This document shows positions 12,447 through 36,284 of a stretch of DNA of 64,000 nt, piece after piece; position 1 is the first letter of the stretch, and every line of letters starts with the position of its first letter. Both the position numbers and the translations under genes were made by a program. A model generated the notes under the pieces. It saw only the letters and a program-made list of their open reading frames with translations. It was not told where the DNA came from and searched no databases. Source of the DNA: a virus (Duplodnaviria; Caudoviricetes); the IMG/VR virus record IMGVR_UViG_3300020049_007737, positions 1 through 64,000 of that record. One strand, given 5' to 3'.

Positions 12447-13277
12447 ATGAAATTAACAGATTTAAGAAAATTAATCAACGAAGAAATTCAATATGTACTT
12501 AATAATGAAGCCTTTGGTAAAGGTGGTAAAAACATTCAAATAGGTGCTGGTGGAGTAAAAGGTGGTGGTGGTAAAAGATTCATACCTTCATTCGTTAAAC
12601 TTCCTAAAAGTGTAAGAGATGCTTTTAAAGGTGATTTCAAATTAGTAAAAAATAGTGAAGGTGAATACACTTTATATATTTCAAAAGATTTACATGCTGC
12701 TTTAAATATAAGAAGCACAGGTCAAAATACAAACACAGCAAAATCATCTTTAAAACGTGTTAATGATATTAATGCTTTAGGATTACCTCAAGAACTTAAA
12801 TCTTTATTAAAGAAAACAAGTAAACTTAATTCTTCATTAGGTATGTATGCTATTGCTGTAAAAATTAAAGACGTAACTCCTGAAGGAGATATTATGTTTG
12901 ATAACCCAGCAGTTTCAGGTACTTTAAATGCATTTGAAGGAGTAATTAATGAAGTAATGGATGCTTTAATGGCAGAAGAAACACACAATCCAGTTGATGA
13001 TATTGGTAAATTTTTCGTAGCTAAAAAACCTAAAAAAGGTATGACTAAGGAAGAAATGGTTTACGAAGCAACTGTATTTGATGAAATAAATCCAGAAGAA
13101 ACATTAATAGTACATAAAAATAAATCTGAAGTAAATCGTACAGCTAGTGAAGCATTAAAATCATTTGAAGATCAACTTAAAGAAGTTGAATCGTCAATGG
13201 AAGAAATACGAAAAGATAAAGAAGCTATAAAAGCAAAAGCTCAAGCTGCTAAAGAAAGAATTAACAAAATAAAATAA
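12447..13277 (+). CDS. Hypothetical protein, candidate internal head protein
   Basis: Leader 'MKLTDLRKLINEEI'; charged; C-terminal coiled coil. Confidence 0.6.
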   Translation: MKLTDLRKLINEEIQYVLNNEAFGKGGKNIQIGAGGVKGGGGKRFIPSFVKLPKSVRDAFKGDFKLVKNSEGEYTLYISKDLHAALNIRSTGQNTNTAKSSLKRVNDINALGLPQELKSLLKKTSKLNSSLGMYAIAVKIKDVTPEGDIMFDNPAVSGTLNAFEGVINEVMDALMAEETHNPVDDIGKFFVAKKPKKGMTKEEMVYEATVFDEINPEETLIVHKNKSEVNRTASEALKSFEDQLKEVESSMEEIRKDKEAIKAKAQAAKERINKIK

Positions 13278-13284
13278 ATAACTT

Positions 13285-13310
13285 AAGCTTGGTCACCCAA
13301 GCTTTCTTTA
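13285..13310 (+). terminator. Intrinsic terminator-like hairpin
   Basis: AAGCTTGG-TCAC-CCAAGCTT followed by TCTTT. Confidence 0.6.
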
Positions 13311-13317
13311 TTATATT
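13288..13317 (+). promoter_or_regulatory. Putative Bacteroidota-type (-33/-7) early/middle promoter
   Basis: CTTGG-N19-TATATT upstream of primase; same spacing as the copies at 27351 and 40143. Confidence 0.5.
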
Positions 13318-13323
13318 GTTTTT

Positions 13324-14253
13324 ATGTTAAATCAAAGTTTGATAGCTTTAGTTAATTCTGTGTTAGGAACTGGTAAATCAACCTCTAGAGGAAACTATGC
13401 TTATCATTGTCCTTTCTGCAATCACCACAAACCTAAATTAGAAATTAATTTTAATGAAAATGAAAAAGGTGAGAATCCTTGGCATTGTTGGACATGTGAT
13501 AAAAAAGGTAAAAAGGTATATCAAATATTTAAATCAATTACATTATCACCTGAAGTAATAGCTGATTTAAAATCACTCACTAAAGGTGGATTTGTTGAAA
13601 AACAAATTACAGTAGAACAAAAAGTTGAATTACCTAAAGAATTTAAATCATTACTTAATATAACTCAAACAAACATAACAGGTAGACATGCTCTGTCTTA
13701 TTTAAAATCAAGACACATAACTGAAGAAGATATTATTAAATACAACATTGGTTATTGTGAAACAGGTAAATATGCTAAAATGATTATTATTCCGTCTTAT
13801 GATAAAAATGGAATATTAAATTACTTTACAGGACGATCATTTAATAAAGACTCAAAACAAAAATACCAAAACCCAGAAGTATCACGCGATATAATACCAT
13901 TTGAGTTGTTTATTAATTGGGAAATACCGTTTATATTGTGTGAAGGACCATTTGATGCAATAGCCATTAAAAGAAATACTATCCCATTACTAGGCAAAAA
14001 TATACAATCTAATTTAATGAAACAGATTGTAAAGTCTAGTGTTGAAAAAATATATATAGCTTTAGATAAAGATGCTCAAAAGCAAGCTTTAACCTTTTGC
14101 GAGCGATTGATGAAAGAAGGCAAAGAAGTCTATTTAGTAGACTTAAATGACAAAGATCCTAGTGAAATGGGATTTAATAATTTCACAAAACTAATACAAG
14201 ACACTTATCCACTAACATTCTCTAGTTTATTAGAGAAAAAACTACAATTATGA
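13324..14253 (+). CDS. dnaG: DNA primase (zinc finger + TOPRIM)
   Basis: CPFC..H...CWTC zinc-binding domain; 'LCEGPFDA' and 'IALDKDA' TOPRIM motifs. Confidence 0.9.
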   Translation: MLNQSLIALVNSVLGTGKSTSRGNYAYHCPFCNHHKPKLEINFNENEKGENPWHCWTCDKKGKKVYQIFKSITLSPEVIADLKSLTKGGFVEKQITVEQKVELPKEFKSLLNITQTNITGRHALSYLKSRHITEEDIIKYNIGYCETGKYAKMIIIPSYDKNGILNYFTGRSFNKDSKQKYQNPEVSRDIIPFELFINWEIPFILCEGPFDAIAIKRNTIPLLGKNIQSNLMKQIVKSSVEKIYIALDKDAQKQALTFCERLMKEGKEVYLVDLNDKDPSEMGFNNFTKLIQDTYPLTFSSLLEKKLQL

Positions 14254-15038: not shown

Positions 15039-15045
15039 TTGCTAA

Positions 15046-15053
15046 TATTTATA
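15046..15053 (+). promoter_or_regulatory. Putative late promoter box TATTTATA
   Basis: Recurrent motif upstream of 15067. Confidence 0.65.
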
Positions 15054-15066
15054 CCAAAATATTGGA

Positions 15067-15975
15067 ATGATTTCTTTAATTGAGATTTTAAAAAAAGTAA
15101 TAACAGAAGGTGGTAATGTATTTACGGGTACCGAATACGATACTGATGATGTTGAATTAAATAATATACAACCAACTGTATCAAAATTTGCATCAACTTT
15201 AAGTAGCATTTTTCCTAAAAAGAAAGCAACATTTGCCTCTTTAAATGATAAGAGTAATTGGTTAGGATCTACAGGTAAAAAACCAAAATCAGGAGACGTT
15301 GATTTAGCATATTCATCTGAACATTTCTTTAATAACGGAAATACTGATACTGATGGATGGGGTATTGATTCAAATGAATATAATGCTCTATACGAAAAAA
15401 ATAAAAAAGCAGCACGTTCTGCTACTGAAGAACAAATTCAAGTAAAATCATTAATTCAATTAATTGTTAAAAAAATTAATGAATCTGGAAATGATTTATA
15501 TGCAAGTGATAAAGCCGCTAATGGTGGTACAATTCACTTTTCTTATCCACAATATTCTGGTGATAAAAAATTAGATTTAAATGCACAACTAGATTTAGAT
15601 ACAGGAGACATGGACTGGTTAAAATTCAGATACAATTATGAACTACCAGATGATAATCCTGAAATAAAAGGGTTACATAGAGGACAACTGATGTTAGCTA
15701 TGTTTGCTGCTACAGGTTATACTTTCAAAAACGGTAAAGGTTTTGTTCGTAAAGAAACAGGTGATATATTAGGTAGTAAACCTCAAGATGCTATAGAAGT
15801 ATTTAATAAAGAATACAAACCTAAAAATCCATTAGATTTAAAAATAACTAGTAATTATGATAAATTAATGAATTATATCAAAACTAATCTTAAACCTGAA
15901 GATAAAGAAAACGCATTAAAAATGTTTGCTGAGGCTTTAAGAAGAGCTAAAGCATATGTACCTAATAATATTTAA
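15067..15975 (+). CDS. Pol-beta-superfamily nucleotidyltransferase-like protein
   Basis: 'LGSTGKKPKSGDVDLA' (GS..DxD) and a third acidic strand 'QLDLD'; leader 'MISLIEILKKVITE'. Confidence 0.65.
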   Translation: MISLIEILKKVITEGGNVFTGTEYDTDDVELNNIQPTVSKFASTLSSIFPKKKATFASLNDKSNWLGSTGKKPKSGDVDLAYSSEHFFNNGNTDTDGWGIDSNEYNALYEKNKKAARSATEEQIQVKSLIQLIVKKINESGNDLYASDKAANGGTIHFSYPQYSGDKKLDLNAQLDLDTGDMDWLKFRYNYELPDDNPEIKGLHRGQLMLAMFAATGYTFKNGKGFVRKETGDILGSKPQDAIEVFNKEYKPKNPLDLKITSNYDKLMNYIKTNLKPEDKENALKMFAEALRRAKAYVPNNI

Positions 15976-15980: not shown

Positions 15981-17888
15981 ATGAGTGGAGCAGCAGGCGG
16001 ATCACGTATTAAAAAAGAAGATTTAAAAGCCACAATTCGTGACTATAGAGATAATGTCTTAAAACCTTTAGGTCTTGATAAATCATACAATATAACTGGA
16101 GTTCGCTCTAGACCTGAGAAAGATATATTTGGTGACATAGATGTTGTTGTATCGTTTCCTGGAGGTGATAAAAAAGAACTTAAACAAACTTTAGCTAAAT
16201 TTATAGAACAAGTTAATAAAGTTCCTGGAATACCACAGAAAAAAAACAAAAAGTATTTTATACATGGTTCTATAGTTTCTATATTATATCCAATATCTGG
16301 AAAAGAAAATGAATATGTTCAAATAGATAATATAGTAACAGCATCAAAAGACGAAGGTAAATTTACATATAAGATGTTAGACTTACCTGCACAAGAACAA
16401 GGTTTAGCTTTAGGTTTAGTTAAAGCAGTATTTACTGAATTAGATAAAAATCAAGTAGATAAATTATTTAAAGATCTAAAAATAACAAATATTGAAAAAC
16501 CTGGCGAAGGAGAAGAATATGACTTTAGTCTAAACCCTTCAGAATTAACCTTAAAAATAGTTAAAACAGGTACTAACGATGGTAAAACAATATGGACATC
16601 TAATAAATTCTCAGATATTAAAATTGTACTATCAGCTTTAGGTATAGATATTGAAAAAGATAAATTCGATACAATAATTAGTAAAATTAAAAAATTCAAA
16701 AATAGAAGATCAATAGATCGTCTTAAAGGAATGTATACTAGAAATATAAGAGTAGGTGACGCAGAAGTAGGTCTTGATAAAGGTATTAAAAAACAACAAT
16801 CATTAGATACAGTTAATGCTTTACAAGAAAAATATAGCGCATTAGTAATGAAGATGATTTCTCCATTATTAACAGAAGGTGAAAATTCAACAATTGCTGT
16901 ATTTCCTGGTAAATTTAAACCACCACATAAAGATCATTTAGCTCGTATAAATGCTGCAGCAGACGTTGCTGATGAGGTTTTAGTAATAATAGGACCAAAA
17001 CCAGTAGATTCATTTACAGCAGAACAAACATTAGATTTATTTAATTTATTTAAATCAAAAGGTTTAATACCTAATAATGTTAAATTTGTAATTAGTGATT
17101 TACCTTCTCCTGTATTAAAAGCATATAAAGAATTTGAAAATAATCCAAATCAACAATACATTGCTGTGTTTGGAAAAGATGATATAGCTCGTTTTAAAAA
17201 TATTGATAAATTATCTAATGTTAAAGTTGATAATTTTGAAGAAGCAAATGTTGGTAATTTAAGTGCAACTGATTTAAGAAATGCTATATCAAATAACGAC
17301 ATTTCAACCATTCAATCAATGATGCCTGATGGTATTGATGCTGAAGAATATATTCAAACATTAATGGGTCAAAAAAAATTACAGGAAGAAGTAACTGATA
17401 CTGAGGTAATTTGTGACAATTGTGGTTGGCATTGGCCTATAGCTGATGGAGGAGATGATTTATATATTTGTCACAAATGTGGTCATGATAATACTCCTAA
17501 TTCAAATCAAACTTGGGATCTTAAAGAAGGAATAGTATCTTTATCTAAGTATATGCTTGAGAATGGATTGAATGTTAAACCTTTACCTACTGTTAAATTT
17601 ATAAACAATGATGAAGAAAATGCATCAAACATGTTAGGTAAAACAGCATATTATGACCCATCAGAAAAATCAATAACATTATATACTTTTGGTAGACATC
17701 CTAAAGATATTCTACGTTCATTTTCTCATGAAATGATTCATCATATTCAAAATTTAGAAAATAGATTAAATAACATTAATACTACTAATACAAATGAAGA
17801 TGGTGATTTACCTGAATTAGAAAAAGAAGCATATGAAAAAGGAAATATGACGTTACGTAATTGGGAGGATAGTATTAAAAATGTATAG
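15981..17888 (+). CDS. Multidomain protein: nucleotidyltransferase + cytidylyltransferase-like (HxGH class) + zinc ribbon + HExxH domain
   Basis: 'FGDIDVVV...VQIDNIV'; 'AVFPGKFKPPHKDH...LSATDLR'; 'CDNC...CHKC'; 'SHEMIHH...E'. Confidence 0.7.
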   Translation: MSGAAGGSRIKKEDLKATIRDYRDNVLKPLGLDKSYNITGVRSRPEKDIFGDIDVVVSFPGGDKKELKQTLAKFIEQVNKVPGIPQKKNKKYFIHGSIVSILYPISGKENEYVQIDNIVTASKDEGKFTYKMLDLPAQEQGLALGLVKAVFTELDKNQVDKLFKDLKITNIEKPGEGEEYDFSLNPSELTLKIVKTGTNDGKTIWTSNKFSDIKIVLSALGIDIEKDKFDTIISKIKKFKNRRSIDRLKGMYTRNIRVGDAEVGLDKGIKKQQSLDTVNALQEKYSALVMKMISPLLTEGENSTIAVFPGKFKPPHKDHLARINAAADVADEVLVIIGPKPVDSFTAEQTLDLFNLFKSKGLIPNNVKFVISDLPSPVLKAYKEFENNPNQQYIAVFGKDDIARFKNIDKLSNVKVDNFEEANVGNLSATDLRNAISNNDISTIQSMMPDGIDAEEYIQTLMGQKKLQEEVTDTEVICDNCGWHWPIADGGDDLYICHKCGHDNTPNSNQTWDLKEGIVSLSKYMLENGLNVKPLPTVKFINNDEENASNMLGKTAYYDPSEKSITLYTFGRHPKDILRSFSHEMIHHIQNLENRLNNINTTNTNEDGDLPELEKEAYEKGNMTLRNWEDSIKNV

Positions 17889-18420
17889 TTACAAATTAAC
17901 AGATATATATAAACAAATTAAAGAGGAGGCAGAACAACCAACTCAACAATACACAATTTATTGTGATATGGACGGTGTGTTATGCGATTTTGACAGTAGA
18001 TTCAAACAATTAAATCCAGAACATTTAACACCAAGTGAATATATTGCTAAATATAGTACAAGTAAATTTTGGAAACAAATAGGCTCTTATAAAGAAGAGT
18101 TCTGGTCAGAAATGAGTTGGATGGCTGATGGTAAACAATTATGGGAGTATATTATAAAATATAAACCATCATTACTATCAGCTCCATCATATGAAGCATC
18201 ATCACGTTATGGAAAAAGATTATGGGTTGATAAAAACTTACCGGGTACAAAACTAATTTTGGCATCAGCCGATAAAAAACAAAATTATTCTAAACCTAAT
18301 CGAATACTTATTGACGATAAAGAATCCAACGTGGAACAATGGCGTTCACAAGGTGGAATAGGTATATTACATAAAAACACAACAGACACAATTAAACAAT
18401 TACAACAATATGGACTATAA
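17881..18420 (+). CDS. HAD-family 5'(3')-deoxyribonucleotidase-like phosphatase
   Basis: 'IYCDMDGVLCDF', 'LSAP', 'K..W' and 'LIDD' motifs. Confidence 0.85.
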   Translation: MYSYKLTDIYKQIKEEAEQPTQQYTIYCDMDGVLCDFDSRFKQLNPEHLTPSEYIAKYSTSKFWKQIGSYKEEFWSEMSWMADGKQLWEYIIKYKPSLLSAPSYEASSRYGKRLWVDKNLPGTKLILASADKKQNYSKPNRILIDDKESNVEQWRSQGGIGILHKNTTDTIKQLQQYGL

Positions 18421-18958
18421 ATATAAATTAAAAGAAAACGATGAAGATGGAAAATCATCACGTTTAACCGTAGATCATGATGTTACTATAGTAACACCAG
18501 ATATTAAAGCAGCTCTTGAAGCATTACAAAACATAGATAACTATGGTATTTATATTTCAAATATGAGAAATAAAGCTAGTGTTGAAAAAGCAATAGAAAC
18601 TCATTTTGGTAACATGGATGCTGACGGTAAAAAAATATCTCATGCTAAAAAAATGTCTATTGAAAAACAAAGAGGTGAGAAATTTCCAATTAAAACAAAA
18701 CAAGGAATAGATGATTTCGTTAAATCATTAACTAGTAAACCAACACTATTAACTTATGATGTTAAAGATGATAAACTTGTTTTTCCTAAAGATAAAAATC
18801 CTTCAATAGAAACTACAAAGAAAATCATTAAAACAGTAATGAATACTGCTGGAGTTGATTATAAAATCTTTAATGAAAAAGAAGCAGTTAAAGAAGCAAA
18901 AGAAAAAGAATTACGTTTATTAATTAGAGAAGAAGTTAGATCTATCTTGAACAAATAA
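18410..18958 (+). CDS. Hypothetical protein, candidate internal head protein
   Basis: Leader 'MDYKYKLKE'; C-terminal 'LRLLIREEV' helix. Confidence 0.6.
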   Translation: MDYKYKLKENDEDGKSSRLTVDHDVTIVTPDIKAALEALQNIDNYGIYISNMRNKASVEKAIETHFGNMDADGKKISHAKKMSIEKQRGEKFPIKTKQGIDDFVKSLTSKPTLLTYDVKDDKLVFPKDKNPSIETTKKIIKTVMNTAGVDYKIFNEKEAVKEAKEKELRLLIREEVRSILNK

Positions 18959-20170: not shown

Positions 20171-21103
20171 ATGGATAAATTTGATTTAAAAAAATTCTTA
20201 ACAGAAAATAAACTAACTAAAACTTCAGTCCTAAGAGAAGGTTTTGAAGAAACCAATTCAGAACCATATGACGAAACATATACTGATCGTAATGAATGGA
20301 TAGAAACAATAAAAACTAAATATCCAAATGCTAAACCAAACGCTAAATTTGGGGATAATAGTATTTGGTTTGATAACGGTAATAGAGTTGCTCAGTGGGT
20401 TACTTCGGAAGATGCAGGTAAAATATATTTTAATGTTAAACCATTAGCAACATCTCCTTTTGTAAGTGACGACCCTTCTAATCCACCAACACAACGTAGT
20501 GCATATGGATTCAAAAATGAAGAAAAATTAAAAACAAAAATCAAAGAAATGATTATTGCTGAGTTAACAGAAGAAAACGATGTTGTTGCCGGTGATTATA
20601 ATTTTGTAGCTGAAGGTGAAGATTTTGAAGATGCAGGAGTAGAAACAGGTGAAGTAGGTGAAAAAGACTATGAAGATTATCAAGAATTAAAAAAATTCTT
20701 AAATACTTTAAAAGATACTAAAGCATCAGATGATATTTTTAATTACGGTAGTGAAATAGATCCAAATGAAGGATATGATGAATTTGATGCTCAATACGAT
20801 GAAAAATTTAAATTATCAGAATTTTTTATAGACGAAGCTAAAAAAGACGAAGAAGCACCAGAAGAAGAACTTTCTGATGAAGAAATAGATACTACTATAG
20901 ATACAACAGATACAGGTGAAGATTTTAATGTTGATACAAGTGCAGTAGATCCTAACATTAAAGCTGTTCAAGATGCTTTAACACAAGCTCAAGCAGCAGC
21001 TAAAAGTATTAATGATGAAAAGTTAACACAACAAATTGGTAACACAATCACAATGTTTACTCGTACTCACATTGCTAATACAGAAGCACCAGCAGCAGAA
21101 TAA
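20171..21103 (+). CDS. Acidic hypothetical protein, candidate internal head/core protein
   Basis: Leader 'MDKFDLKKFLTE'; very E/D-rich. Confidence 0.6.
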   Translation: MDKFDLKKFLTENKLTKTSVLREGFEETNSEPYDETYTDRNEWIETIKTKYPNAKPNAKFGDNSIWFDNGNRVAQWVTSEDAGKIYFNVKPLATSPFVSDDPSNPPTQRSAYGFKNEEKLKTKIKEMIIAELTEENDVVAGDYNFVAEGEDFEDAGVETGEVGEKDYEDYQELKKFLNTLKDTKASDDIFNYGSEIDPNEGYDEFDAQYDEKFKLSEFFIDEAKKDEEAPEEELSDEEIDTTIDTTDTGEDFNVDTSAVDPNIKAVQDALTQAQAAAKSINDEKLTQQIGNTITMFTRTHIANTEAPAAE

Positions 21104-21124: not shown

Positions 21125-21298
21125 ATGAACACAACAGAGTTATTAGAAAAAATCGAGTCATTATTAGTAGAATTAAAAGCTGAAAACGCTAAAACTGCTA
21201 AAGCTGCTCATGGTCGCGCACGTAAAATTGCAGGTGAAGTTAAAACTTTAGCTAACGACTATAGAAAAGCTTCAATTGCTGAAGACAAAGCAAATTAA
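21125..21298 (+). CDS. Histone H1-like (Hc1-type) small DNA-binding protein, 57 aa, absent from the ORF track
   Basis: Hand translation: [57 protein letters not shown]; 'KAA..RARK' motif; A-rich leader; TAATG coupling to the next gene. Confidence 0.7.
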
Positions 21299-22170
21299 TG
21301 AACAACAACCAACTTAAAACAGTAATTAGAGAGTTCTTATCTTCCGATAAGGGCTCTCCTGTTATTGGTAATAAGTACAAAGATACATTCTTAGAAAAAC
21401 GTCAAGAATATATCAATGCATTACTAAAAAATAAAAGAAGTTTAGTAAAACGTTATGGTAAAGATGCTGAAAAAGTATTAACAGGTAGAGCGGTTAAAGA
21501 CGCTAACAAATATATAGAAAACATGAAACAACAAGATATAAAAGAATTAGTAAGAAAGTCTCTAATGGAAAAACCAGAAACCATAGACTCAAAACAATAC
21601 ATCTCAGAAAGAGAAGAAAATCCAGAAGATGTAATTAAAATGGATGTTCCTTTATTCATTCGTATGTTAGAGTATGCTCGTGAAGATGCTAGTACTGATA
21701 TTGATTTACATGATGTTGCTGAAAAAGCAATTAGTTTAAGTAGTGAAGATAAAATATTAACAATGGCTGATTATGATGCTATTGTTGGTGATATGGAATC
21801 ATTAAATGAAGATGATTGGAAACAAGGTGATGATGAATCGGATATGGCTGGTTCACAATTAAAATCAATTCAATCAAACGCTTCTAAATTAATGAATATG
21901 ATTGATAATAATGAACAATTAGATGCTTGGGTACAAGCAAAATTAACTAAAGCTCAAGATTATTTACAATCAGTTAATGATTATTTAGTAGGTGAAGAAG
22001 GTGAAGAAATTTACGAAGAACGTTTCAAAAAAGGAACAGACATAGGTAAAAAAGGTCCTGGATTCGAAAAAATTGCTAAAAAAGCAGGTAAAGCATACGG
22101 CTCAGAAGAAGCAGGTAAGCGTGTAGCAGGAGCTGTTTTACAAAAAATAATGGCTAAAAAAGGAAAATAA
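21298..22170 (+). CDS. Modular hypothetical protein, candidate internal head protein
   Basis: Leader 'QLKTVIRE'; short modules separated by LME/ISE/LNE. Confidence 0.6.
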
Positions 22171-22658
22171 TGACTAAAAACGAATTAAGAGAAAAAATCA
22201 AAGCAGTAGCTTTACAAAACCTAAGACCTAAATCAATTGATTTAGATAAAGGAAATGATGTATCTCTTGATGCATTAAAGTTTCCTGTTTTAGGTAAATT
22301 TCCTGAACTTAAAAAAGTAATTATTAATTTATTAACTCAACAATATGAAATATTTTTAACAGATATTCAATGGGTTGCTCCACGTCCAACAACTTTTAGA
22401 GTTGTACTTGGAAATGGTGAAACTTTTAATTTAATATATACCGAAAGAAGTTGGATAGCTAAAGTTGAAGGTAAAAGATATTATTTATTAAATTTAAGTG
22501 AAGAAGAATCAGCAGCCGAATCAATAGCTAGAATATTATCTTATGGTCTTAAAGAAGAATCACAAACACCTGATGAATTATCAGGAGAGGAACCAGCAGA
22601 AATAAATCCTGAAGATATTCCTGAACCAGAAGAAAATAACCCACAACCAGAAGTATAA
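22170..22658 (+). CDS. Hypothetical protein
   Basis: Coupled ORF; leader '[11 protein letters not shown]'; acidic, proline-rich tail. Confidence 0.6.
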   Translation: MTKNELREKIKAVALQNLRPKSIDLDKGNDVSLDALKFPVLGKFPELKKVIINLLTQQYEIFLTDIQWVAPRPTTFRVVLGNGETFNLIYTERSWIAKVEGKRYYLLNLSEEESAAESIARILSYGLKEESQTPDELSGEEPAEINPEDIPEPEENNPQPEV

Positions 22659-25560: not shown

Positions 25561-26206
25561 AATTTATATTTACTTTTTAGAAAAAAATAGTAATGTCTTT
25601 TATGTTGGAAAAACTAAAAATCCAAAACGTAGAGAATATGATTGGAAAAGAGAATTTGGAGAAGATATTAATTTTAATTTAATAGACGAAACTGAAGATG
25701 ATAAAAAGATATGGAAATTTTGGGAAAATTATTGGATTCAACAATTTAAACAATGGGGATTCAATTTAATAAACCAAAATGAAGGTGGTGGGGGATTAGA
25801 TAAACATTCTGATGAAACTATTAAAAAAATTAGATCTAAAAAGGTAGGTAAAAAATATAATAAACCTTATAAAACTAGAAAAGATAAAGGGTTAAAACAT
25901 AATAAACAACAAGGTGTTAAAATAGGTCGTCCTGAAGGATTTAAATATAGTGAAGAACTTAAATTACATTTAAGTAACAAAATGAAAGGACATTCAAAAC
26001 ATAGTGAAGAAGGAAAATATAAGTTTGTAGATAATAATGTTTATTCTTTTATTAATATAAATACTAATGAAGAATTCAAAGGTATTAGATATGATTTTCA
26101 AAAGAAATATGGTTTAAAATATAAAGGAATATATAATTTAGTAACAAATAAAGCAAAAACGTATAAAAGATGGAAAATAAAGAATTTAAAAGATTACAAA
26201 AATTAG
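25535..26206 (+). mobile_element. GIY-YIG homing endonuclease with NUMOD3-like repeats, inserted in the oxidoreductase gene
   Basis: 'YIYFLE...FYVGKT..PKRR..E..W...N..GG'; 'HSDETIKKIR' and 'HSEEGK' repeats. ATG 25535 preferred over TTG 25526. Confidence 0.8.
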
Positions 26207-26586
26207 CAGGAATCATTAAAGAAAATACAAATATTCAACATACAATGTACTCAGGAATAACTTTAGAAGCTTGGGAAAACATATGGAAAAATAAAAATTT
26301 TAAAGATAAGGTAACAAATGTTACTGATGATATAGATTTTGCTCTTAATTATTCTTATAATTTTAAAACAGGCAAATATGAAGATGTAGTAGTTGAAATA
26401 TCTAATATTCCCTTAGAAGCTTTTATAGCTTATAGAGAAGATGAGTATAATGATGATGAAGATTTTAATTCTATGGAAGAATTATTAGATAATGAAAAAC
26501 AAAATATAATTAAATCTTATTCGTTATTTTTAGTTAATCTTTATCCATATAAAAATCAAATTACAACTAAGCTAATTCAAAAATAA
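26170..26586 (+). CDS. Passenger hypothetical protein within the insertion; N-terminus resembles the scaffold C-terminal motif
   Basis: 'RLQKLAGIIKE' leader; body weakly ART-like. Confidence 0.6.
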   Translation: MENKEFKRLQKLAGIIKENTNIQHTMYSGITLEAWENIWKNKNFKDKVTNVTDDIDFALNYSYNFKTGKYEDVVVEISNIPLEAFIAYREDEYNDDEDFNSMEELLDNEKQNIIKSYSLFLVNLYPYKNQITTKLIQK

Positions 26587-26589
26587 AAT

Positions 26590-28170: not shown

Positions 28171-28983
28171 ATGAAAATATCTGAATTTAAGAAACAAATT
28201 AGAGAAAATATCGTAGAAATCCTGTCAGAAAAAACATATGCAGGACCTGATGCTATTAAAGCAGCAAAAGAAGATACTCATTACAATAAATTAACATCAA
28301 CTGCTAAAACAGACATAATTAATACCTTGAAAAAAGGTGGCGAAGCTGAATTAGAAGAAGGTGAATTAGATGAAATGGCTCGTACAGCAGCTAAATTAAC
28401 TATTGCTGATAAAGAAACAGCAGAAGCTGTTAAAGAAAAATTTAAAGGTAAATGGTTAGAAAAAATGATTGATATAATCATGGCCGCTGGTAGTGAAGGT
28501 ATTTCTCAACCAGAAGTAGCTAAAATGTTAGATAAAGTACAACCAGCAATTAACCCACAAGTTAGAGCATTAACTGCTTCTGGTGTAATAAAATTAACAG
28601 GTTCTGCACCTTCAGAACCAAAAGAAAAAGAACCTAAAGTAAAAATGTTCAAACCAAAAGCTGCTGCATTACCTAAAGACGATGCTCCAGAAGATGTAGT
28701 TGATACTTACTATAAAGCCGATGATGAAGATATGGGTTTTGATGATGAAAAAGAGCCAACAAAAGCAGACATTTCTAAGAACGCAGGTTCTAAATTCTCA
28801 TCTACAGGTGATAAGTATAAAGCTTTAATCAAACAAATGAAAGACATTGCTGACAAATATAAAGCAGCAAGTGGTGAAGAAGCTAAAATGTACGTAGATC
28901 AATTAAAAGATCTAACTAAAGAAAAGAAAAAATTAGAAGCAATGTTGAACCCGTCAATTGGTGACGAGGAAGAAGAATTCTAA
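28171..28983 (+). CDS. Candidate internal head protein with a possible winged-HTH
   Basis: TATTTATG box 28160-28167; leader 'MKISEFKKQIRENIVEILSE'; 'GISQPEVAKMLDKVQPAINPQVRAL' HTH-like segment. Confidence 0.55.
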   Translation: MKISEFKKQIRENIVEILSEKTYAGPDAIKAAKEDTHYNKLTSTAKTDIINTLKKGGEAELEEGELDEMARTAAKLTIADKETAEAVKEKFKGKWLEKMIDIIMAAGSEGISQPEVAKMLDKVQPAINPQVRALTASGVIKLTGSAPSEPKEKEPKVKMFKPKAAALPKDDAPEDVVDTYYKADDEDMGFDDEKEPTKADISKNAGSKFSSTGDKYKALIKQMKDIADKYKAASGEEAKMYVDQLKDLTKEKKKLEAMLNPSIGDEEEEF

Positions 28984-29603: not shown

Positions 29604-31169
29604 ATGAGTCAAGATTTAAAACAAATAATAAGGGAAGAATATCTAAAGTGCTCGCAGGATCCTGCTCACTTTATGAAAAAATATTGTAATATTCAACACC
29701 CACAAAGAGGTAGAGTAATATTCAATTTATATCCGTTTCAAGACAAGGTATTACATTTATGGAGAGATAATCCATATAGTATAGTTCTAAAATCAAGACA
29801 ATTAGGTATATCTACTTTAGCCGCAGGTTATTCCTTGTGGCTAATGTTGTTTCACAAAGATAAAAACGTACTTTGTATTGCGACTAAGCAAGAAACAGCT
29901 AAAAACATGGTAACGAAAGTTAAATTCATGTTTGATAACTTACCTTCTTGGTTAAAAATAACAGCAGAAGAAAATAACAAATTAACACTACGATTAAGCA
30001 ATGGTTCTCAGATTAAAGCAACTTCAGCATCATCAGATGCAGGTCGTTCAGAAGCAGTATCTTTACTTATAGTCGATGAAGCAGCATTTATTGAACAAAT
30101 TGGAGAAATATGGGCATCAGCACAACAAACATTAGCAACGGGTGGTGGAGCAATTGTTCTATCAACACCTTATGGAACTGGAAATTGGTTCCACAAGACA
30201 TGGGTATCAGCAGAGAACAAGGAAAACGACTTTTTACCTATCAAGCTACCTTGGTTCGTTCATCCAGAACGAAATGAAGAATGGAGAAAACGTCAAGATG
30301 AATTATTAGGAGATCCTAGATTAGCAGCACAAGAATGTGATTGTGACTTTAGTACATCAGGTGATGTTGTATTCTTTCCTGAATGGGTTGAATTTATAAA
30401 CCAAACATCAATACAAGAACCATTAGAGCGTAGAGGCGCAGATCAAAATTTATGGATATGGGAACCTGCTGATTATTCAAGAGAATATATGATTACAGCA
30501 GACGTAGCTAGAGGTGATGGAAAGGATTTTTCAACATTTCACGTTATGGATATAGCTACAAATACACAAGTAGCAGAGTATAGAGGTCAATTACCACCTA
30601 AAGAATTTGGTTATATGTTGGTAGCAATAGCTACTGAATATAATATGGGTTTATTAGTAGTTGAAAATGCATCTATTGGTTGGGCTACAATTGATGCTGT
30701 GTTAGAAAGAGGATACAAAAATATTTATTATTCTCCTAAATCAGATGCATTAACTGTAGATTCATATTTTAATCAATTTGAAAACAGTAGCACTGTTACT
30801 CCTGGTTTCACAATGTCTTTAAAAACAAGACCATTAATAATTAATAAGTTCAGAGAATATATTGGTGACAAATCAGTAACAATTCGTTCTAAAAGATTAT
30901 TAGAAGAAATGAAAGTATTTGTATGGAAAAATGGTAGAGCAGAAGCACAAACAGGATATAATGATGATTTAGTTATGCCGTTTGGTATAGCAATGTATTT
31001 AAGAGATACTTCTTTAAAATTCCAACAACAATCTCATGATCTTACTCGCGCTACACTTGGAAGTATGAAAAAAACCAATTATATTGGAGGGTATAGTTCT
31101 AACCAAGTCCAAAACCCTTATTCTATGGAAACAAAAGGAGGTTCTGAGGATATTAACTGGTTATTATAA
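29604..31169 (+). CDS. terL: Terminase large subunit (T4 gp17-like)
   Basis: 'KSRQLGIST' Walker A, 'LLIVDEAAF' Walker B, 'STPYG', 'ADVARG' and 'DDLVM' nuclease motifs. Confidence 0.95.
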   Translation: MSQDLKQIIREEYLKCSQDPAHFMKKYCNIQHPQRGRVIFNLYPFQDKVLHLWRDNPYSIVLKSRQLGISTLAAGYSLWLMLFHKDKNVLCIATKQETAKNMVTKVKFMFDNLPSWLKITAEENNKLTLRLSNGSQIKATSASSDAGRSEAVSLLIVDEAAFIEQIGEIWASAQQTLATGGGAIVLSTPYGTGNWFHKTWVSAENKENDFLPIKLPWFVHPERNEEWRKRQDELLGDPRLAAQECDCDFSTSGDVVFFPEWVEFINQTSIQEPLERRGADQNLWIWEPADYSREYMITADVARGDGKDFSTFHVMDIATNTQVAEYRGQLPPKEFGYMLVAIATEYNMGLLVVENASIGWATIDAVLERGYKNIYYSPKSDALTVDSYFNQFENSSTVTPGFTMSLKTRPLIINKFREYIGDKSVTIRSKRLLEEMKVFVWKNGRAEAQTGYNDDLVMPFGIAMYLRDTSLKFQQQSHDLTRATLGSMKKTNYIGGYSSNQVQNPYSMETKGGSEDINWLL

Positions 31170-31196: not shown

Positions 31197-33089
31197 ATGG
31201 CTGATAAAAGTTTATTTACCCGATTACAAAGATTATTTTCAACAGATGTAATCATTCGTAATCAAGGAGGAAATCAATTAAAAGTAATGGATGTTGATTC
31301 CATTCAACGTTCCGGAGATATAGCAACTAATTCGTTAGTAGACAGATATAACCGTCTATATTCACCTGCTACAACATCATTACTAGGATCACAGTTAAAT
31401 GTAAACTGGCAGTACTTACGTACAATGGTATACTCAGACTATGATAATATGGACTATGATGCAATTGTTGCTTCTGCTCTTGATATTATTGCTGATGAAT
31501 GTACATTGAAAAATGACATGGGAGAAGTACTTCAAATTAGAAGTAGTAACGAGGATGTTCAACAAATTCTTTATAATTTATTCTACGATGTGTTAAACAT
31601 CGAATTTAATTTATGGTCTTGGATTCGTCAAATGTGTAAATATGGTGATTTTTTCCTAAAATTAGAAATCGCTGAAAAATATGGTGTTTATAATGTAATT
31701 CCATATACAGCATTTCATATTGAAAGACAAGAAAATTATGATCCTAACCACCCCAATGCAGTAAGATTTAAATATTCACCTGAAGGTATATTTGCTGGAG
31801 GTTCAGGATATTATGGTACACCAAATATAGGAACATTTGATAATCAACCAGGTATTCATTTTGAAAATTATGAAATGGCTCACTTTAGATTATTAACTGA
31901 CGTTAACTATCTTCCTTATGGTCGTTCATACTTAGAACCAGCTCGTCGTATTTTCAAACAATATGTGTTAATGGAAGATGCTATGTTAATTCATAGAATT
32001 TCTCGTTCACCAGATAGAAGAATATTTTATATCAACGTTGGTTCAATTCCTCCAAATGAAGTAGAAAATTTCATGCAGAAAACAATTTCTACAATGAAAC
32101 GTACTCCATTAATGGATAATCAAACAGGTGAATATAACTTAAAATACAACATGCAAAACATGTTAGAAGATTTTTATATTCCTATTAGAGGTAATGATCA
32201 AACAACCAAAATTGAAACCACTCCAGGTTTAACTTATGATGGTATTCAAGACGTTACTTATTTAAGAGATAAATTATTTGCTGCTTTAAAAGTACCTAAA
32301 GCGTTCATGGGTTATGAAAAAGATTTAACAGGTAAAGCAACATTAGCAGCAGAAGATATTCGTTTTGCTCGTACAATTGACCGTATACAACGTATTACCT
32401 TATCTGAATTATATAAGATCGCGTTAGTACATTTATATTCACAAGGTTACACAGGTGAAGAATTAACTAATTTTGAATTAGATTTAACAACTCCATCTAT
32501 TATCTATGACCAAGAGAAAATTGCATTATTAACTCAAAAGGTAGAATTAGCTAAATCAATTATGGAAGCTAAATTATTACCTACAGATTGGATTTACGAT
32601 AATATATTCCACTTCAGTCAAGATCAATTTGATGAATATAGAGATTTATTAGCAGAAGATCAAAAACGTGCATTCAGATTTAACCAATTATTTGAAGAAG
32701 GTAATGACCCTAAAGAAACAGGTAAATCATATGGTACACCACACGATTTAGCTACATTGTATGGTAGAGGTAGATATGATGAAGCTAGTGTACCTGATGG
32801 ATATAATGAAAAAGCACCATTAGGAAGACCTGAAGAAAAAGCAACGGATAGAAATACACAAGATGATTTCTTAGGTAAAGATAGATTAGGTGCTCAAGGA
32901 ATGAAAAAAGATGATAATGAATCTGATTCAATCCGTCCACAATATAAAGGTGGTTCGCCACTAGCATTAGAAGCTAAGCAAGTGTATCTTAAGAATAGAA
33001 CATTAATTGAAAGTCTAGGAAAGAAGGTATCAGTTGAAAGAGATTCAGCAGGAGAATCACTATTAGATGAATCTAATTTAAAGGAGTAA
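31197..33089 (+). CDS. Portal protein (T4 gp20-like)
   Basis: 'MEDAMLIHRISRSPDRRIFYINVG', 'MLEDFYIP.RG' and 'LFAALKVP'. Confidence 0.95.
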   Translation: MADKSLFTRLQRLFSTDVIIRNQGGNQLKVMDVDSIQRSGDIATNSLVDRYNRLYSPATTSLLGSQLNVNWQYLRTMVYSDYDNMDYDAIVASALDIIADECTLKNDMGEVLQIRSSNEDVQQILYNLFYDVLNIEFNLWSWIRQMCKYGDFFLKLEIAEKYGVYNVIPYTAFHIERQENYDPNHPNAVRFKYSPEGIFAGGSGYYGTPNIGTFDNQPGIHFENYEMAHFRLLTDVNYLPYGRSYLEPARRIFKQYVLMEDAMLIHRISRSPDRRIFYINVGSIPPNEVENFMQKTISTMKRTPLMDNQTGEYNLKYNMQNMLEDFYIPIRGNDQTTKIETTPGLTYDGIQDVTYLRDKLFAALKVPKAFMGYEKDLTGKATLAAEDIRFARTIDRIQRITLSELYKIALVHLYSQGYTGEELTNFELDLTTPSIIYDQEKIALLTQKVELAKSIMEAKLLPTDWIYDNIFHFSQDQFDEYRDLLAEDQKRAFRFNQLFEEGNDPKETGKSYGTPHDLATLYGRGRYDEASVPDGYNEKAPLGRPEEKATDRNTQDDFLGKDRLGAQGMKKDDNESDSIRPQYKGGSPLALEAKQVYLKNRTLIESLGKKVSVERDSAGESLLDESNLKE

Positions 33090-33122: not shown

Positions 33123-33992
33123 ATGAATATTAAACACTCAAAGTACAAAAATACGGGAATCCTGTTTGAACTTTTAGTAAGACAAATAACGGCTGATACC
33201 TTATCTGGTGTTGATTCTAAAGCCACTAAAATTTTAAAGAAATACTTTGTCAAAACAGAATTAGGAAGAGAATACAAATTGTATGAAACACTTTCTAAGC
33301 ATAAAAATCTTACTGATGGTAAAGCAGAAGTAGTGATTAATTCTATTATTGAGTCTTCTAAAAACTTAAATAGAGGAGCATTAAAAAGACAAAAATATAA
33401 TATTATTAAAGAAATATCTAGTCATTATAATTTAGATGAGTTTTTTAAAACAAAATTACCTAATTATAAATCTCAGGCAGCATTATATACACTACTAGAA
33501 ATATATAACAGCGAGAATTTATCTAATCCCAATCAAATCATTGACAATAAAATTATTATTTTAGAAACATTAACAACTAAACCTGTTAGTAAACAAAAAG
33601 TAGAAGATGATTTGATGACTGAATTCCAGTCATACGATAAAGACATCAGAATTCTAACATATAAAGTAATGTTAGAAAAATTTAATGGTAAATATGAATC
33701 ATTAAATGAAAACCAAAAATCAGTATTAAAAGAATTTATTAATTCAATGGATTCAACTCCTAAATTAAAAGAATTTTATAATAATAAAATAACTGAGATT
33801 AAATCTGAGTTAAGTAAGTTAAGTAAAAAGGTTTCGGATAAAGCAATTCAAATTAAATTAACAGAAGTTAACAACATGTTAACACCATTAGGTAAGTTAT
33901 CTAAAATAGATAATGATGATTTAGTTAATTTATTACAGTATTATGCACTTTTAGAAGAACTTATTAAGGCAAATGGCCAAGTACAAATATAA
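33123..33992 (+). CDS. Head-module helical protein (prohead core candidate)
   Basis: Lies between portal and protease; 'KHSKYKNTGILFELL'. Confidence 0.6.
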   Translation: MNIKHSKYKNTGILFELLVRQITADTLSGVDSKATKILKKYFVKTELGREYKLYETLSKHKNLTDGKAEVVINSIIESSKNLNRGALKRQKYNIIKEISSHYNLDEFFKTKLPNYKSQAALYTLLEIYNSENLSNPNQIIDNKIIILETLTTKPVSKQKVEDDLMTEFQSYDKDIRILTYKVMLEKFNGKYESLNENQKSVLKEFINSMDSTPKLKEFYNNKITEIKSELSKLSKKVSDKAIQIKLTEVNNMLTPLGKLSKIDNDDLVNLLQYYALLEELIKANGQVQI

Positions 33993-34533
33993 ATTAAAAG
34001 AAGAATCAACTATTTCCTCTAATTCTGGATTTGTTTCTGGAGGTGAAGGAGAGAATCACAATGGTCCTTCTCCAAGAAAATCAACTTACGGCGCTTATAA
34101 ACAAGCAGGATATAAAAAAGTAGCAGAAGGTCCTGGTGCATCATTAGGTCCTGGTCCGGATGCTGGTCCTGAAGGTGTTAAAGATAATGTATATGTTAAA
34201 AAATTTAAATATAAATTAGTTGATCGTCCTGCTCTAAATAAAGCAGCAAAAGGTATTGAAGTAAAATCATTATGGGAAGCTAATACAGATGTAGATTCTT
34301 TCTTACAAGATAATGAAACTAATAACCCTGATAATAAAAAATTTATAGCTTCACGTGTTTTAGGATTTGATGAATTAGAAACAAAATTAAATCAATTAAT
34401 TCCTTTATTACAACAAGCAAAACACAAAACAATGGATTATTACAGACAAAATCCTGGTACATTTAACGTGTTGTATAGTACTGATATAGCAAATGATTAT
34501 TTGAATGACCTAATAGAATTATTTAAAGACTAA
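33973..34533 (+). CDS. Hypothetical protein, candidate internal head protein
   Basis: Leader 'MAKYKYKLKEE'. Confidence 0.6.
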   Translation: MAKYKYKLKEESTISSNSGFVSGGEGENHNGPSPRKSTYGAYKQAGYKKVAEGPGASLGPGPDAGPEGVKDNVYVKKFKYKLVDRPALNKAAKGIEVKSLWEANTDVDSFLQDNETNNPDNKKFIASRVLGFDELETKLNQLIPLLQQAKHKTMDYYRQNPGTFNVLYSTDIANDYLNDLIELFKD

Positions 34534-34865
34534 TGGCAACATATAATTTCAATATTACAGCAAGCTCAGTTCAACAACCAGCAAACATTGGTGCAGGGGT
34601 TTCTACTGTATTTGCAATAGCGAATCCATTAACAACAGATGCTTATTTTACTTTAGAAACAGTACCTAATGCTGATGGAGCTTATACTACATCTACTGTA
34701 AAAAACACATCAGGTTCATTTACATTAGGAACAGGTTTAAGAGAATTAATCCAATCAGATTATATAACATCAGTTATAGTAGCTCCAGGTGGCGGAAATT
34801 TAACATTTGTACCAGCAGTAGCAATTACAGCAACTAATTTGAATTTAAGAGGAATTGGAGCATAA
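34533..34865 (+). CDS. Small beta-rich protein, possible head decoration
   Basis: A/T/S/G-rich 110 aa in the head module. Confidence 0.5.
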   Translation: MATYNFNITASSVQQPANIGAGVSTVFAIANPLTTDAYFTLETVPNADGAYTTSTVKNTSGSFTLGTGLRELIQSDYITSVIVAPGGGNLTFVPAVAITATNLNLRGIGA

Positions 34866-34873
34866 AAAATACA

Positions 34874-34881
34874 TATTTATA
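34874..34881 (+). promoter_or_regulatory. Putative late promoter box TATTTATA
   Basis: Upstream of 34887. Confidence 0.6.
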
Positions 34882-34886
34882 ACAAA

Positions 34887-36284
34887 ATGAAAACATTACA
34901 ACAACAATATTTACTTATTAAAGAAGGCAAAGGTAATAAAGACTACTTCTTAAAACAAGCAAGAAATTTATTCCCTGACTTTATAACTTCAGGTAATGAT
35001 TATAATTCAGCAACACAAATCTTAAAAGGCAAAGGCATTTTAAGTGAAGGTATTGGAGGTATTGCAACACTTAATCCTAATTCTAAGCCTGATTGGTTTA
35101 AAATTTTTGATACTAACTTAAGAGAAGCTGTAGGTGTTAAAAACACTAAAGAATATGGTGATCAAAATGAATTTGAAAAAGTAGATAAAGAAGTTCAAGA
35201 TGCTTTAGATCATAACTTTGATAATAAAGATGAGAAAAACATCGATAACGTTTACGGTCAATCATTCTTAATGGGATACTACACTGAAATGAAAGATCCT
35301 AAAAACGCTGATAAAACCGTTGATGAATTAAAACAAATTGTATTAAAAAACATGGTTAAAGATGTTACTTATTACAATACAAAAGCATCATTTGGTGTTA
35401 AAGATATCGGATATACAAAAGACGTAGTTGGTGGTGGAGACCCTGTAGCACCTAAAGGCAAATACAAATCATCAGGATATGGTGATATGCCTAAAGCTAA
35501 AGTTGTTAAAGAAGGAATAAACGAATCTATGGATTTTTCAGCTAAAGATCAAAAAGATTGGAGTGAGAAAAAAAGTAAAATGTATGATATTTGGGCTAAT
35601 AAATCTAATGAATTAATTGACTTAAAAGATGATTTGAAAAAAGCTAAAAGTAGAAATGATAAAGATGAAATAAAAATAATTAATAATAAGATTTCACAAA
35701 AGCAAATAGCTATAAAAACTGCAAAAGAAGAATTTCAAAAATTATCTGAATCTTTAAACGAAGCTAAAAAACCAAATATTCATACTCGTATCAAAGATTT
35801 GGAAAAACAAAACGAAGTATTAGCATTAGAATCTAAAATTACAGCATTAGAAGAAGCAATTAATGAATTAAATCAGAAAATATCATTATCTGAATCTGAT
35901 GATTTAGCTGAAATGATGGATCCTAAAAAAATCACTGAACTTAAAAAAGATATTAAAGTACTTGAAAAATATAAAGTAACTTGTGAGAAAAAATTATCAA
36001 AATTAGGTGGCAAAAAAGCTGTAGTTGATAATGAAGAAATAAAAGAAAATACATCTTCAGTAGGTAAAAATTATCCTGGGACTTTAACAGCAGAATTTGA
36101 CGGAGAAGAACAAACATTAGACGGTCAAGATTTACATGATTTTTTAACAACAATAATTACTGTTGCTAATAATGAAGATGATTTCATAAGCAAAGTTGAA
36201 TTTGGTTTAACAAACACTAACAGTAAATTAGGTGACGAAGATGTAGAAGCTTTAAAAAACTGGTACAACGCTAATAAAGAATAA
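34887..36284 (+). CDS. Prohead core/internal protein (modular, coiled coil)
   Basis: Coupled to the protease gene; many I/L-x-E junctions (IKE, LSE, LRE, INE, LNE). Confidence 0.6.
   Translation: MKTLQQQYLLIKEGKGNKDYFLKQARNLFPDFITSGNDYNSATQILKGKGILSEGIGGIATLNPNSKPDWFKIFDTNLREAVGVKNTKEYGDQNEFEKVDKEVQDALDHNFDNKDEKNIDNVYGQSFLMGYYTEMKDPKNADKTVDELKQIVLKNMVKDVTYYNTKASFGVKDIGYTKDVVGGGDPVAPKGKYKSSGYGDMPKAKVVKEGINESMDFSAKDQKDWSEKKSKMYDIWANKSNELIDLKDDLKKAKSRNDKDEIKIINNKISQKQIAIKTAKEEFQKLSESLNEAKKPNIHTRIKDLEKQNEVLALESKITALEEAINELNQKISLSESDDLAEMMDPKKITELKKDIKVLEKYKVTCEKKLSKLGGKKAVVDNEEIKENTSSVGKNYPGTLTAEFDGEEQTLDGQDLHDFLTTIITVANNEDDFISKVEFGLTNTNSKLGDEDVEALKNWYNANKE

Follow-up and report, generated by a model that had tools for sequence, protein, structure and literature searches.

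The first 64,000 nucleotides (positions 1 to 64,000, here called the window) of IMG/VR virus record IMGVR_UViG_3300020049_007737, a single contig of 149,049 bp with about 30% GC and nearly every gene on the plus strand, probably encode an expanded and diversified version of the capsid-targeting and protease-release system of phage T4, in a distant aquatic clade. The stretch from the tail-fibre block to the prohead protease encodes about twelve proteins that start with an amphipathic helix of 9-20 residues whose end, Leu(P7)-x-x-PHI(P4)-Ile/Leu(P3)-x-Glu(P1), with PHI for a hydrophobic residue and positions counted back from a predicted cut behind the Glu, can be read as a T4-type capsid-targeting sequence (CTS). 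The hydrophobic face of the helix (P7 and P4) would dock the protein onto the core of scaffold and major capsid protein (MCP) in the assembling prohead, the S77 (gp21-type) protease would cut at the (I/L)-x-E end, and the mature protein would be freed inside the head; in relatives, the leaders would double as cleavable linkers within polyproteins. The predicted cargo comprises a putative polymerase-beta (Pol-beta)-type nucleotidyltransferase (NTase), a 5'-nucleotidase, a protein with a predicted ADP-ribosyltransferase (ART) fold, a winged-helix protein and several proteins of unknown fold. Packaging, docking, cleavage, retention in the virion and injection of the tagged proteins are what we infer from sequence.

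By the Pfam matches of its head module, the source is a T4-like myovirus. Judged by the identity of the large terminase subunit TerL, its closest cultured relatives are Flavobacterium phage vB_FspM_immuto (59%; immuto in the following) and then Microcystis phage Mel-JY01 (50%), and the T4-like cyanophages among the matches listed have TerLs of about 30% identity; a megablast search of the region against cultured phages gave no match. More than 599 IMG/VR contigs have a TerL match, the best 80 of them at 76-95% identity. The phage thereby falls into a large, mostly uncultured, aquatic clade of Bacteroidota-type phages.

Unrelated genes share an N-terminal leader

A sequence-only reading of the window had proposed that about 14 late genes at 12447-36284 tag their products for packaging through leaders ending in (I/L)-x-E. 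All 12 N-termini that it quoted are found where it placed them, the internal ATGs it chose at 24608 and 28171 agree with the starts of the relatives (MIKL... and MKxSE...), and the further copies it pointed to, at the C terminus of 18410 (LRLLIRE/EV) and inside 20171 (LKTKIKEMI), are present; the count of leader genes, set at about 14, comes down to 12 in the window, nine with the strict motif given below plus 18410, 33973 and 34887. They are listed here under their start coordinates together with one weaker candidate (22170); a slash marks the predicted cut.

12447..13277, plus strand: predicted cargo gene, 276 aa; leader MKLTDLRKLINE/ (12447-12482), class D
15067..15975, plus strand: predicted cargo gene, 302 aa, putative Pol-beta-superfamily nucleotidyltransferase; leader MISLIEILKKVITE/ (15067-15108), class B
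17881..18420, plus strand: predicted cargo gene, 179 aa, HAD/NT5C 5'-deoxynucleotidase; leader MYSYKLTDIYKQIKE/ (17881-17925)
18410..18958, plus strand: predicted cargo gene, 182 aa; leader MDYKYKLKE/, class E, as in 33973
20171..21103, plus strand: predicted cargo gene, 310 aa, acidic (pI 4.2); class A leader MDKFDLKKFLTE/NKLTKTSVLRE/
21298..22170, plus strand: predicted cargo gene, 290 aa; 12-residue leader (quoted earlier as QLKTVIRE) and internal junction ESLNE171/DD
22170..22658, plus strand: weaker candidate, 162 aa; MTKNELRE/KIKA
23839..24588, plus strand: predicted cargo gene, 249 aa; leader MKDLKELIRE/
24608..24937, plus strand: predicted cargo gene, 109 aa from the ATG at 24608; class B leader MIKFIDLIRE/
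26170..26586, plus strand: predicted cargo gene, 138 aa; class C leader MENKEFKRLQKLAGIIKE/ (26170-26223)
28171..28983, plus strand: predicted cargo gene (open reading frame from 28165); class D double leader MKISEFKKQIRE/NIVEILSE/
33973..34533, plus strand: head-module protein, 186 aa; leader MAKYKYKLKE/, class E
34887..36284, plus strand: head-module protein, 465 aa; MKTLQQQYLLIKE/GKG (YLLIKE/G)

An alignment of the leaders anchored on the Glu, which stands at residue 10-18, gives the pattern PHI-x-x-PHI-(I/L)-(K/R/T/N)-E. When the first 25 residues are searched for the strict motif [LIFMVYW]..[LIVFMYWQ][IL][KRTNQ]E, 14 of the 205 genes of the genome have it, compared with 2.4 expected from the internal rate; shuffled N-termini give 2.41 +/- 1.5 genes genome-wide and reach 14 in none of 2000 shuffles. 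The excess is concentrated in the region 12.4-36.3 kb, with 10 of 31 genes against 0.41 expected and a maximum of 4 in 5000 shuffles. The relatives on their own, counted with one vote per family, have the strict motif in 13 of 136 families (2.5 expected). In the phage's own genome, [IL]xE alone is just 1.5-fold enriched at N-termini. An all-against-all comparison of N-terminal 22-mers from non-homologous proteins, which uses no motif, yields 12 pairs scoring at least 35 versus 1-6 in internal and shuffled control sequences, and the top-scoring pairs are mostly leader genes. None of the tail and baseplate genes of the window has a leader; elsewhere in the genome, there are three further carriers (78602, 84961 and 88917).

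The families to which the cargo belongs are mutually unrelated by BLAST clustering, and every carrier has I or L at P3 and E at P1. The Glu stands at residue 9-20 in the carriers and most often at 10-12 in the relatives; 18410 and 33973 share a different start, M-x-x-YKYKLKE. Across 40 families, P7 is Leu in 30, P4 is L, I, Y or F, I or L fills P3, E stands at P1, and Met is commonest at P12. The codons behind these residues differ between leaders (identity 0.75 versus 0.66 expected from codon usage); since codons vary while residues are kept, selection acts on the peptide and not on the DNA, and on this analysis we rejected a DNA-level explanation of the leaders. Strict sites also lie within 15 residues of the C terminus in five proteins (18410, 19528 and 36284, and 68701 and 103276 in genome coordinates; 1.9 expected), which is reminiscent of T4 Alt and gp21, both of them also trimmed at the C terminus (PMC9026906).

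Two proteins with a similar start were rejected as carriers. The sequence MSQDLKQIIRE of TerL is a conserved core helix with no leader added: residues 10-473 align to residues 107-559 of T4 gp17, the N-terminal helix matching one in the interior of the gp17 core, [ILV]xE is kept in 33 of 79 orthologs, and immuto reads IVAQE. In the Hc1-like protein 21125, the Pfam domain spans residues 5-55, so the helix belongs to the fold.

The leader motif follows the processing rule of T4 and recurs in the head proteins

The T4 CTS is found on the internal proteins (IPs) IPI, IPII and IPIII and on Alt and is processed by gp21 (Mullaney & Black 1996, as summarised in PMC9026906, PMC3012670), the propeptides of the IPs being 10-19 aa long (PMC9026906). 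In the CTS of IPIII, MKTYQEFIAE, residues 4 and 7 are needed for targeting and residues 8 and 10 for processing (PMC9026906). Counted from the cut, these critical residues are P7, P4, P3 and P1, the very columns conserved in the leaders of the window. As a positive control, the same expression was run on the T4 proteins from NC_000866. It matches MKTYQEFIAE, which occurs twice in the T4 genome, at the start of IPIII and of IPII, finds a single site in gp23 (FGSFLTE65/A), hits gp24 at INELLRE10/S, and has a false positive in T4 DNA ligase (MILKILNE). Both E65/A of gp23 and E10/S of gp24 are documented gp21 cuts. T4 gp21 itself begins with LLIE9/T and gp22 with QLIAE9/A.

The terminase and head genes of the window, with the portal marking the head module, are these.

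29604..31169, plus strand: TerL, T4-type terminase large subunit (Pfam)
31197..33089, plus strand: portal, T4 gp20 family (Pfam); without leader
36284..36892, plus strand: prohead protease, Peptidase_S77, T4 gp21 type (Pfam)
37257..38300, plus strand: gp22-like scaffold, by position between protease and MCP and by composition
38332..40077, plus strand: MCP, Gp23 family (Pfam)

The gp21-like protease assumed at 36284 by the earlier reading is well founded: the protein matches Peptidase_S77 with 101.5 bits (Pfam cutoff 27), aligns to structure 5jbl and keeps the catalytic His and Ser, GELDHPES being aligned with GELNHPPR and GVSSRGMGS with GVSSRGLGS of wild-type T4 gp21. Its score against Peptidase S80, the phiKZ type, is 18.5 bits and under the cutoff of 23.4. 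The protease, scaffold and MCP have sites of the same kind as the leaders. Those of the protease are LIE7/T, kept by 27 of 27 orthologs and found in T4 gp21 as LIE9/T, IIRE92/ and LLTE191/, the last 11 residues from the C terminus. The scaffold (347 aa) has DLLKE9/A and three strict internal sites at E39, E94 and E161, and the propeptide of the MCP has four conserved sites (QLLE9/, GLLE36/, LLLE51/ and LVTE60/Q), of which LVTE60/ lies at the position homologous to the T4 cut, just ahead of the conserved mature N terminus.

Leaders behave as portable modules

What gives the strongest new evidence is how the leaders are distributed over the best 80 related loci and immuto. There they form at least five classes, each on unrelated cargo families.

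Class A: xNFDLKKYLAE(G/N)KLxxE, 8 unrelated cargo families
Class B: MIKLxxILxE, 7 unrelated cargo families
Class C: EFxKMQKLAGIITE, 7 unrelated cargo families
Class D: MKKSELKxxIKE(EIxEILSE), 6 unrelated cargo families
Class E: YKYKLKE, 3 unrelated cargo families

Leaders are swapped, gained and lost as modules precisely at the predicted cut. Homologs of 26170 have a class C or class B leader, a leader of the form MKxLKxFE or NFKQFxNE, or none, in which case they start at the conserved core. The members of one family (fam21) have no leader, class C or class A, and those of another (fam31) class B or class A. Orthologs of 23839 start with the leader or directly with the Cys cluster that follows it, orthologs of 17881 have other leaders with the same motif (LADLLLE/ in immuto, LKEIYTKIIE/ in the relative L087), and between 20171 and immuto gp076, similarity is confined to the 34-residue leader. 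The 118 orthologs of 15067 show the junction most clearly: the leader is 13-16 residues long with a free P2, the P1 Glu is kept in 118 of 118 and I, V or L at P3 in 118 of 118, and the junction E/GGNVF is fixed. The immuto ortholog aligns only from residue 15 and starts M-GGNVF, which is the predicted product of the cut VITE14/GGNVF.

The same peptides also stand between domains. 21298 and 22170 correspond to modules of a single 841-residue immuto protein, gp079, whose junctions read ...QLKESLNE/DD and SKSELKEIMLEAYIEVLQE/; the C-terminal module of 21298 is one of them, and the homologue of 22170 is an internal module preceded by SKSELKEIMLEAYIEVLQE/. A scan for ART-like cargo in other lineages covered three loci, of which L087 was informative. 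This 160-kb relative (IMGVR_UViG_3300030104_006433) encodes at 7721-11059 a polyprotein of 1112 aa that consists, in order, of a class B leader, a P-loop kinase-like module, an NMNAT-like module (after ILNE341/), a HEMIH metalloprotease-like motif, an ART-like module flanked by SSLNE/ and DSLNE/, and a further module. Mel-JY01 has one class B leader on a cytidylyltransferase-like enzyme and few other leaders, which suggests that the expansion of leaders is specific to the clade.

One class links the cargo to the scaffold. The extreme C terminus of the scaffold, RWQLLAGIKKQL (window 38262-38297), follows the pattern R-W/F/M-Q/K-x-L-A-G-I/L, then usually K or I; the tail is conserved in 22 of 22 orthologs, in immuto (RWQKLAGIIK) and in Mel-JY01 (RMKKLAGIVK), the scaffolds of L081 and L085 being among those that show it. 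T4 gp22 ends differently (...VYAKVASRF). The class C leader is this scaffold-tail peptide plus a cut site (QKLAGIITE/), and the peptide is also found internally and C-terminally in relatives; a literature search for the motif QKLAGI found no paper. In many phages, the C terminus of the scaffold binds the coat protein. From the match between the two peptides, class C cargo probably uses the docking site of the scaffold itself.

The predicted cargo is diverse

Searches of the cargo against Pfam, PHROGs and NCBIfam found almost nothing and no match to an IP or Alt family, the only link to either being the fold-level ART resemblance of 26170; the cargo not assigned below is without known family. 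In the AlphaFold2 models, the leaders are detached helices of low confidence, and structural matches start right behind the cut.

For 15067, the model has a mean predicted local distance difference test (pLDDT) score of 80.8, with residues 1-15, the leader, detached and below 50; the sequence S75-G76-D77-V78-D79 (SGDVD) is invariant among the orthologs, to be compared with the metal-binding motif G[SG]...DxD of the Pol-beta superfamily, and the fold search ranks Pol beta, lambda and mu first (probability up to 0.99), with weak scores otherwise (E 3e-3, TM 0.3). There is no Pfam match. In 17881, the Pfam domain begins only at residue 26. The neighbour of 15067, 15981 (window 15981-17888), is a 635-aa NMNAT-like protein that starts MSGAAGG... 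and has a strict internal site, LLTE299/G; since its start resembles the mature N terminus of 15067 (GGNVF...), the two may be paralogous NTase modules. Its Mel-JY01 ortholog has a class B leader, MGKLINILLSE/, and from the shared module types, judged by eye, 15981 looks like a shorter, leaderless version of the L087 polyprotein.

The mature part of 26170 is a predicted ART-fold domain that parallels T4 Alt, which we offer as a lead only. Its model has a pLDDT of 87.3, and Foldseek, VIA-align and Atlas return almost only ART-clan domains, if weakly (E 0.03-0.15, Z up to 6.5, TM about 0.5); in VIA-align, these matches begin at residue 18-19, right behind the predicted cut. When the catalytic triad, canonically H-Y-E or R-S-E, is mapped by eye, the near-invariant Tyr27 (Y-S-G) seems to take the place of the His; among the further residues, S62 and Y63 are invariant, Y61 is nearly so, and E76 is not. 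Around this gene, the GIY-YIG endonuclease gene 25526 divides an FAD oxidoreductase into 25039 and 26590 (window 25039-27369). As 26170 sits with the endonuclease gene inside the split oxidoreductase, the cargo gene appears to travel with a homing endonuclease.

The family of 28165/28171 combines a highly conserved leader of 20 residues with a hypervariable body of 73-383 aa and keeps one position, 2-3 genes upstream of TerL; the body in the window has a MarR-like winged helix and a coiled coil. With such a body, a role of 28165 as small terminase is unsupported, and no small terminase (TerS) was identified at all. The gene directly upstream of TerL (window 28985-29563) encodes a protein with an N-terminal transmembrane helix.

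Among the other carriers, 12447 found no match in a sequence search of the PDB and belongs to no known family. 23839 has a CGCGC Cys cluster after the leader and a very basic tail at its end (…RRAAFRARHNCKNPGPRWKARYWSCKKW), 18410 a second site near its C terminus (LRLLIRE174/EVRSILNK), and 20171 an internal linker resembling class D (KLKTKIKEMIIAELTE, about residues 119-134).

The head-module protein 33973 differs in what follows its leader: behind the cut YKLKE/, it reads ESTISSNSGFVSGGEGEN, a near copy of the segment behind the MCP site LVTE/QNTISSNSSFVSNGNGEN. In six loci with such a mimic of the MCP (the window and the relatives L002, L004, L039, L040 and L063), the type of the mimic, ISSNS..GEN or TGGG..FTPGTG, matches the class of the phage's own MCP in 6 of 6; this co-variation rests on about two lineages, and so we do not count it as evidence. 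By analogy with T4 Inh, the mimic may be a pseudo-substrate or regulator.

An upstream box is a candidate signal of late or structural genes

The candidate late-gene signal of the phage is a short box upstream of many genes.

12435..12443, plus strand: ATATTTATA box, candidate late-gene signal; more copies at 15045, 20147, 29576, 31169, 33100 and 34873

There are 34 copies on the plus strand and 3 on the minus strand. The box ends 3 nt upstream of 12447 and lies 13 nt upstream of 15067, 15 nt upstream of 20171 and 5 nt upstream of 34887. As it precedes TerL, the portal, 33123, 34887, head genes and many tail genes, a late or structural signal is plausible. The clearest leader genes outside the main cluster, 78602 and 88917, each have a box of their own.

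Several ATGs follow the end of the box after just 3-5 nt (boxes at 12435, 34873 and 45842, and at genome positions 78588, 82028 and 88903); if the box is -10-like, such mRNAs would be leaderless or nearly so. The reverse complement of the box contains the T4 late promoter TATAAATA. A box also lies 13 nt upstream of the gene at genome position 136757, beyond the window, whose product of 1504 aa has a signal-peptide-like N terminus. Another upstream motif, TTCGTACATTCACA (core GTAYATWC), is a candidate early promoter; its loose copies, about 30 in number, lie with few exceptions in the non-structural half of the genome (at 64-149 kb, for example, 65562, 114347 and 146305-148704).

Discussion

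How close is the system to that of T4? The likeness extends to an N-terminal propeptide of 10-19 residues with hydrophobic targeting positions at P7 and P4 and processing positions at P3 and P1 (I/L-x-E), to an S77 protease, to a conserved tag on diverse cargo, to C-terminal sites and, by weak fold matches, to a possible ART-fold protein among the cargo (T4 Alt). The cargo, however, has no sequence homology to IPs or Alt, and we therefore file the system as a T4-like working variant and not as a set of IP homologues. It also differs in scale and make-up: about 12-15 genes per genome are tagged, compared with 4-5 in T4; at least five leader classes occur per genome, one of them copying the C-terminal tail of the scaffold; the cargo is not mainly basic and includes enzymes of the nucleotide-metabolism type; in relatives, the same peptides join the modules of polyproteins; and the clade is one of Bacteroidota-type aquatic phages. 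The concept as such is known from T4, and what is distinctive here are the multiple leader classes, the mimic of the scaffold tail, the swapping of leaders on the predicted ART-fold cargo and the enzymatic cargo.

Other precedents are found in the T-even phages and in giant phages. The ip loci of T-even phages are polymorphic, with CTS-like basic proteins in T2, T6 and T4D (PMC9026906). The 28165 family resembles them in fixed position, conserved leader and hypervariable body, and differs in that its bodies, 73 to 383 aa long, comprise a winged helix, and in that the leader class itself is swapped in this clade. In phiKZ, 201phi2-1 and SPN3US, inner-body and ejection proteins are cut after S/A/G-x-E by gp21-related proteases (PMC9026906, PMC5694885, PMC7411985). 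As is predicted for the phage studied here, the giant phages have many head proteins cut after Glu by a T4-related protease, propeptides with multiple sites and a large mass of cargo; unlike it, they have a small residue at P3, and the protease of the window is S77 and not S80. We know of no short, portable N-terminal address classes described for giant phages.

A number of observations weigh against reading the leaders as T4-type capsid-targeting tags. The regular expression was shaped on the window's own examples, and the motif-free test is significant yet modest. TerL and T4 DNA ligase match the motif by chance, so the motif is informative and insufficient alone. The predicted site is kept only in part among the orthologs of 21298 and 22170, and in 34887, the P1 Glu is Lys in several orthologs, which makes it a weaker case. 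The mature cargo ranges in pI from 4.1 to 10.1, unlike the basic internal proteins of T4, its fold assignments are weak to middling (E 3e-3 to 0.1, Z up to 6.5), and the packaging of metabolic enzymes such as a 5'-nucleotidase is unusual. Of 13 leader genes, just 5 have an exact box within 60 nt upstream (odds ratio 5.6, p = 0.01), the majority thus lacking one, and the box heads operons containing primase and exonuclease too; the link between leaders and late box drawn earlier therefore holds in part. Neither virion proteomics nor N-terminal data on this phage or immuto turned up in a literature search. The T4-like interpretation put forward by the sequence-only reading thus keeps its main supports, the four-position architecture, the sites in head proteins, the S77 protease and the modular junctions at the predicted cut, and loses some of its force through a motif that does not suffice by itself and a weaker promoter argument.

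Among the alternatives, the one that survives best, unlikely as we consider it, accepts that the signals are genuine and takes the tagged proteins for components of assembly or of the core that are degraded or expelled at maturation, like T4 gp22, gp67 and gp68. Such a role would suit 33973 and 34887, which lie inside the head module between portal and protease, and it draws on the facts that scaffold and protease bear the same sites, that 12447, 18410, 20171 and 21298 have extra internal or C-terminal ones, and that many tagged proteins are acidic and scaffold-like. Folded enzymes with a single N-terminal site (the NTase, the NT5C protein and the ART-fold protein) are, however, closer to T4 Alt and the IPs than to a scaffold; the set is hypervariable among close relatives, unlike essential assembly factors, and orthologs occur both with and without leader.

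We give even less credit to the idea that the helices are docking or recognition peptides for a partner other than the capsid, be it a modifying enzyme, a chaperone, a membrane or a replication or transcription factory. Amphipathic helices are generic interaction modules, and TerL, which is not packaged, has a similar one; its helix, however, is part of a conserved fold, and its Glu is not conserved. The combination of invariant P1 Glu, aliphatic P3 and free P2 is the cleavage rule of gp21, the motif recurs at the processing sites of MCP, scaffold and protease and at known T4 sites, and class C equals the C-terminal tail of the scaffold; in the 80 loci, no other conserved gene was noticed to go along with the leaders, though no systematic search was made. 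We hold it very improbable that composition or a DNA-level signal, such as a translational 'downstream box' or a recombination linker, produced the pattern: in a genome of about 30% GC, K, E, I and L are abundant, MK starts are common and [IL]xE by itself is mildly enriched at N-termini, but the shuffles never reach the observed count, tail and baseplate genes of the same composition lack the motif, codons vary where residues are kept, discrete classes are common to phages of just 59% TerL identity, and the junctions coincide with homology boundaries.

Going beyond T4-type targeting and release as such, the leader classes could form an 'address code', in which each class mimics a different interface of prohead assembly and together they load an exchangeable arsenal of injected enzymes; we regard this extension as possible and rather doubtful. 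Class C (RWQxLAGI) would then bind where the scaffold tail binds, presumably the inner surface of the MCP, and 33973 would reproduce the mature N terminus of the MCP. The arsenal would include ART-fold, Pol-beta NTase, NMNAT-like, 5'-nucleotidase and kinase-like proteins, encoded as single tagged genes or as polyproteins jointed by protease sites, and would be injected with the DNA as factors of immediate counter-defence or takeover.

The CTS of T4 is the textbook route for loading a phage head, to our knowledge described essentially only in T-even coliphages and for a handful of cargo proteins. Under the reading we prefer, the same logic would operate in a distant and very abundant environmental clade with a dozen or more cargo genes per genome. 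If this is true, a simple sequence rule would predict injected proteins, candidate anti-defence or host-takeover factors, from metagenomes, and the cultured phage immuto would supply natural tags for packaging foreign proteins in a phage that does not infect E. coli. The link between class C and the scaffold tail offers a testable handle on what a CTS binds, and the hypervariable gene blocks that lie beside the head modules of these phages would find their explanation.

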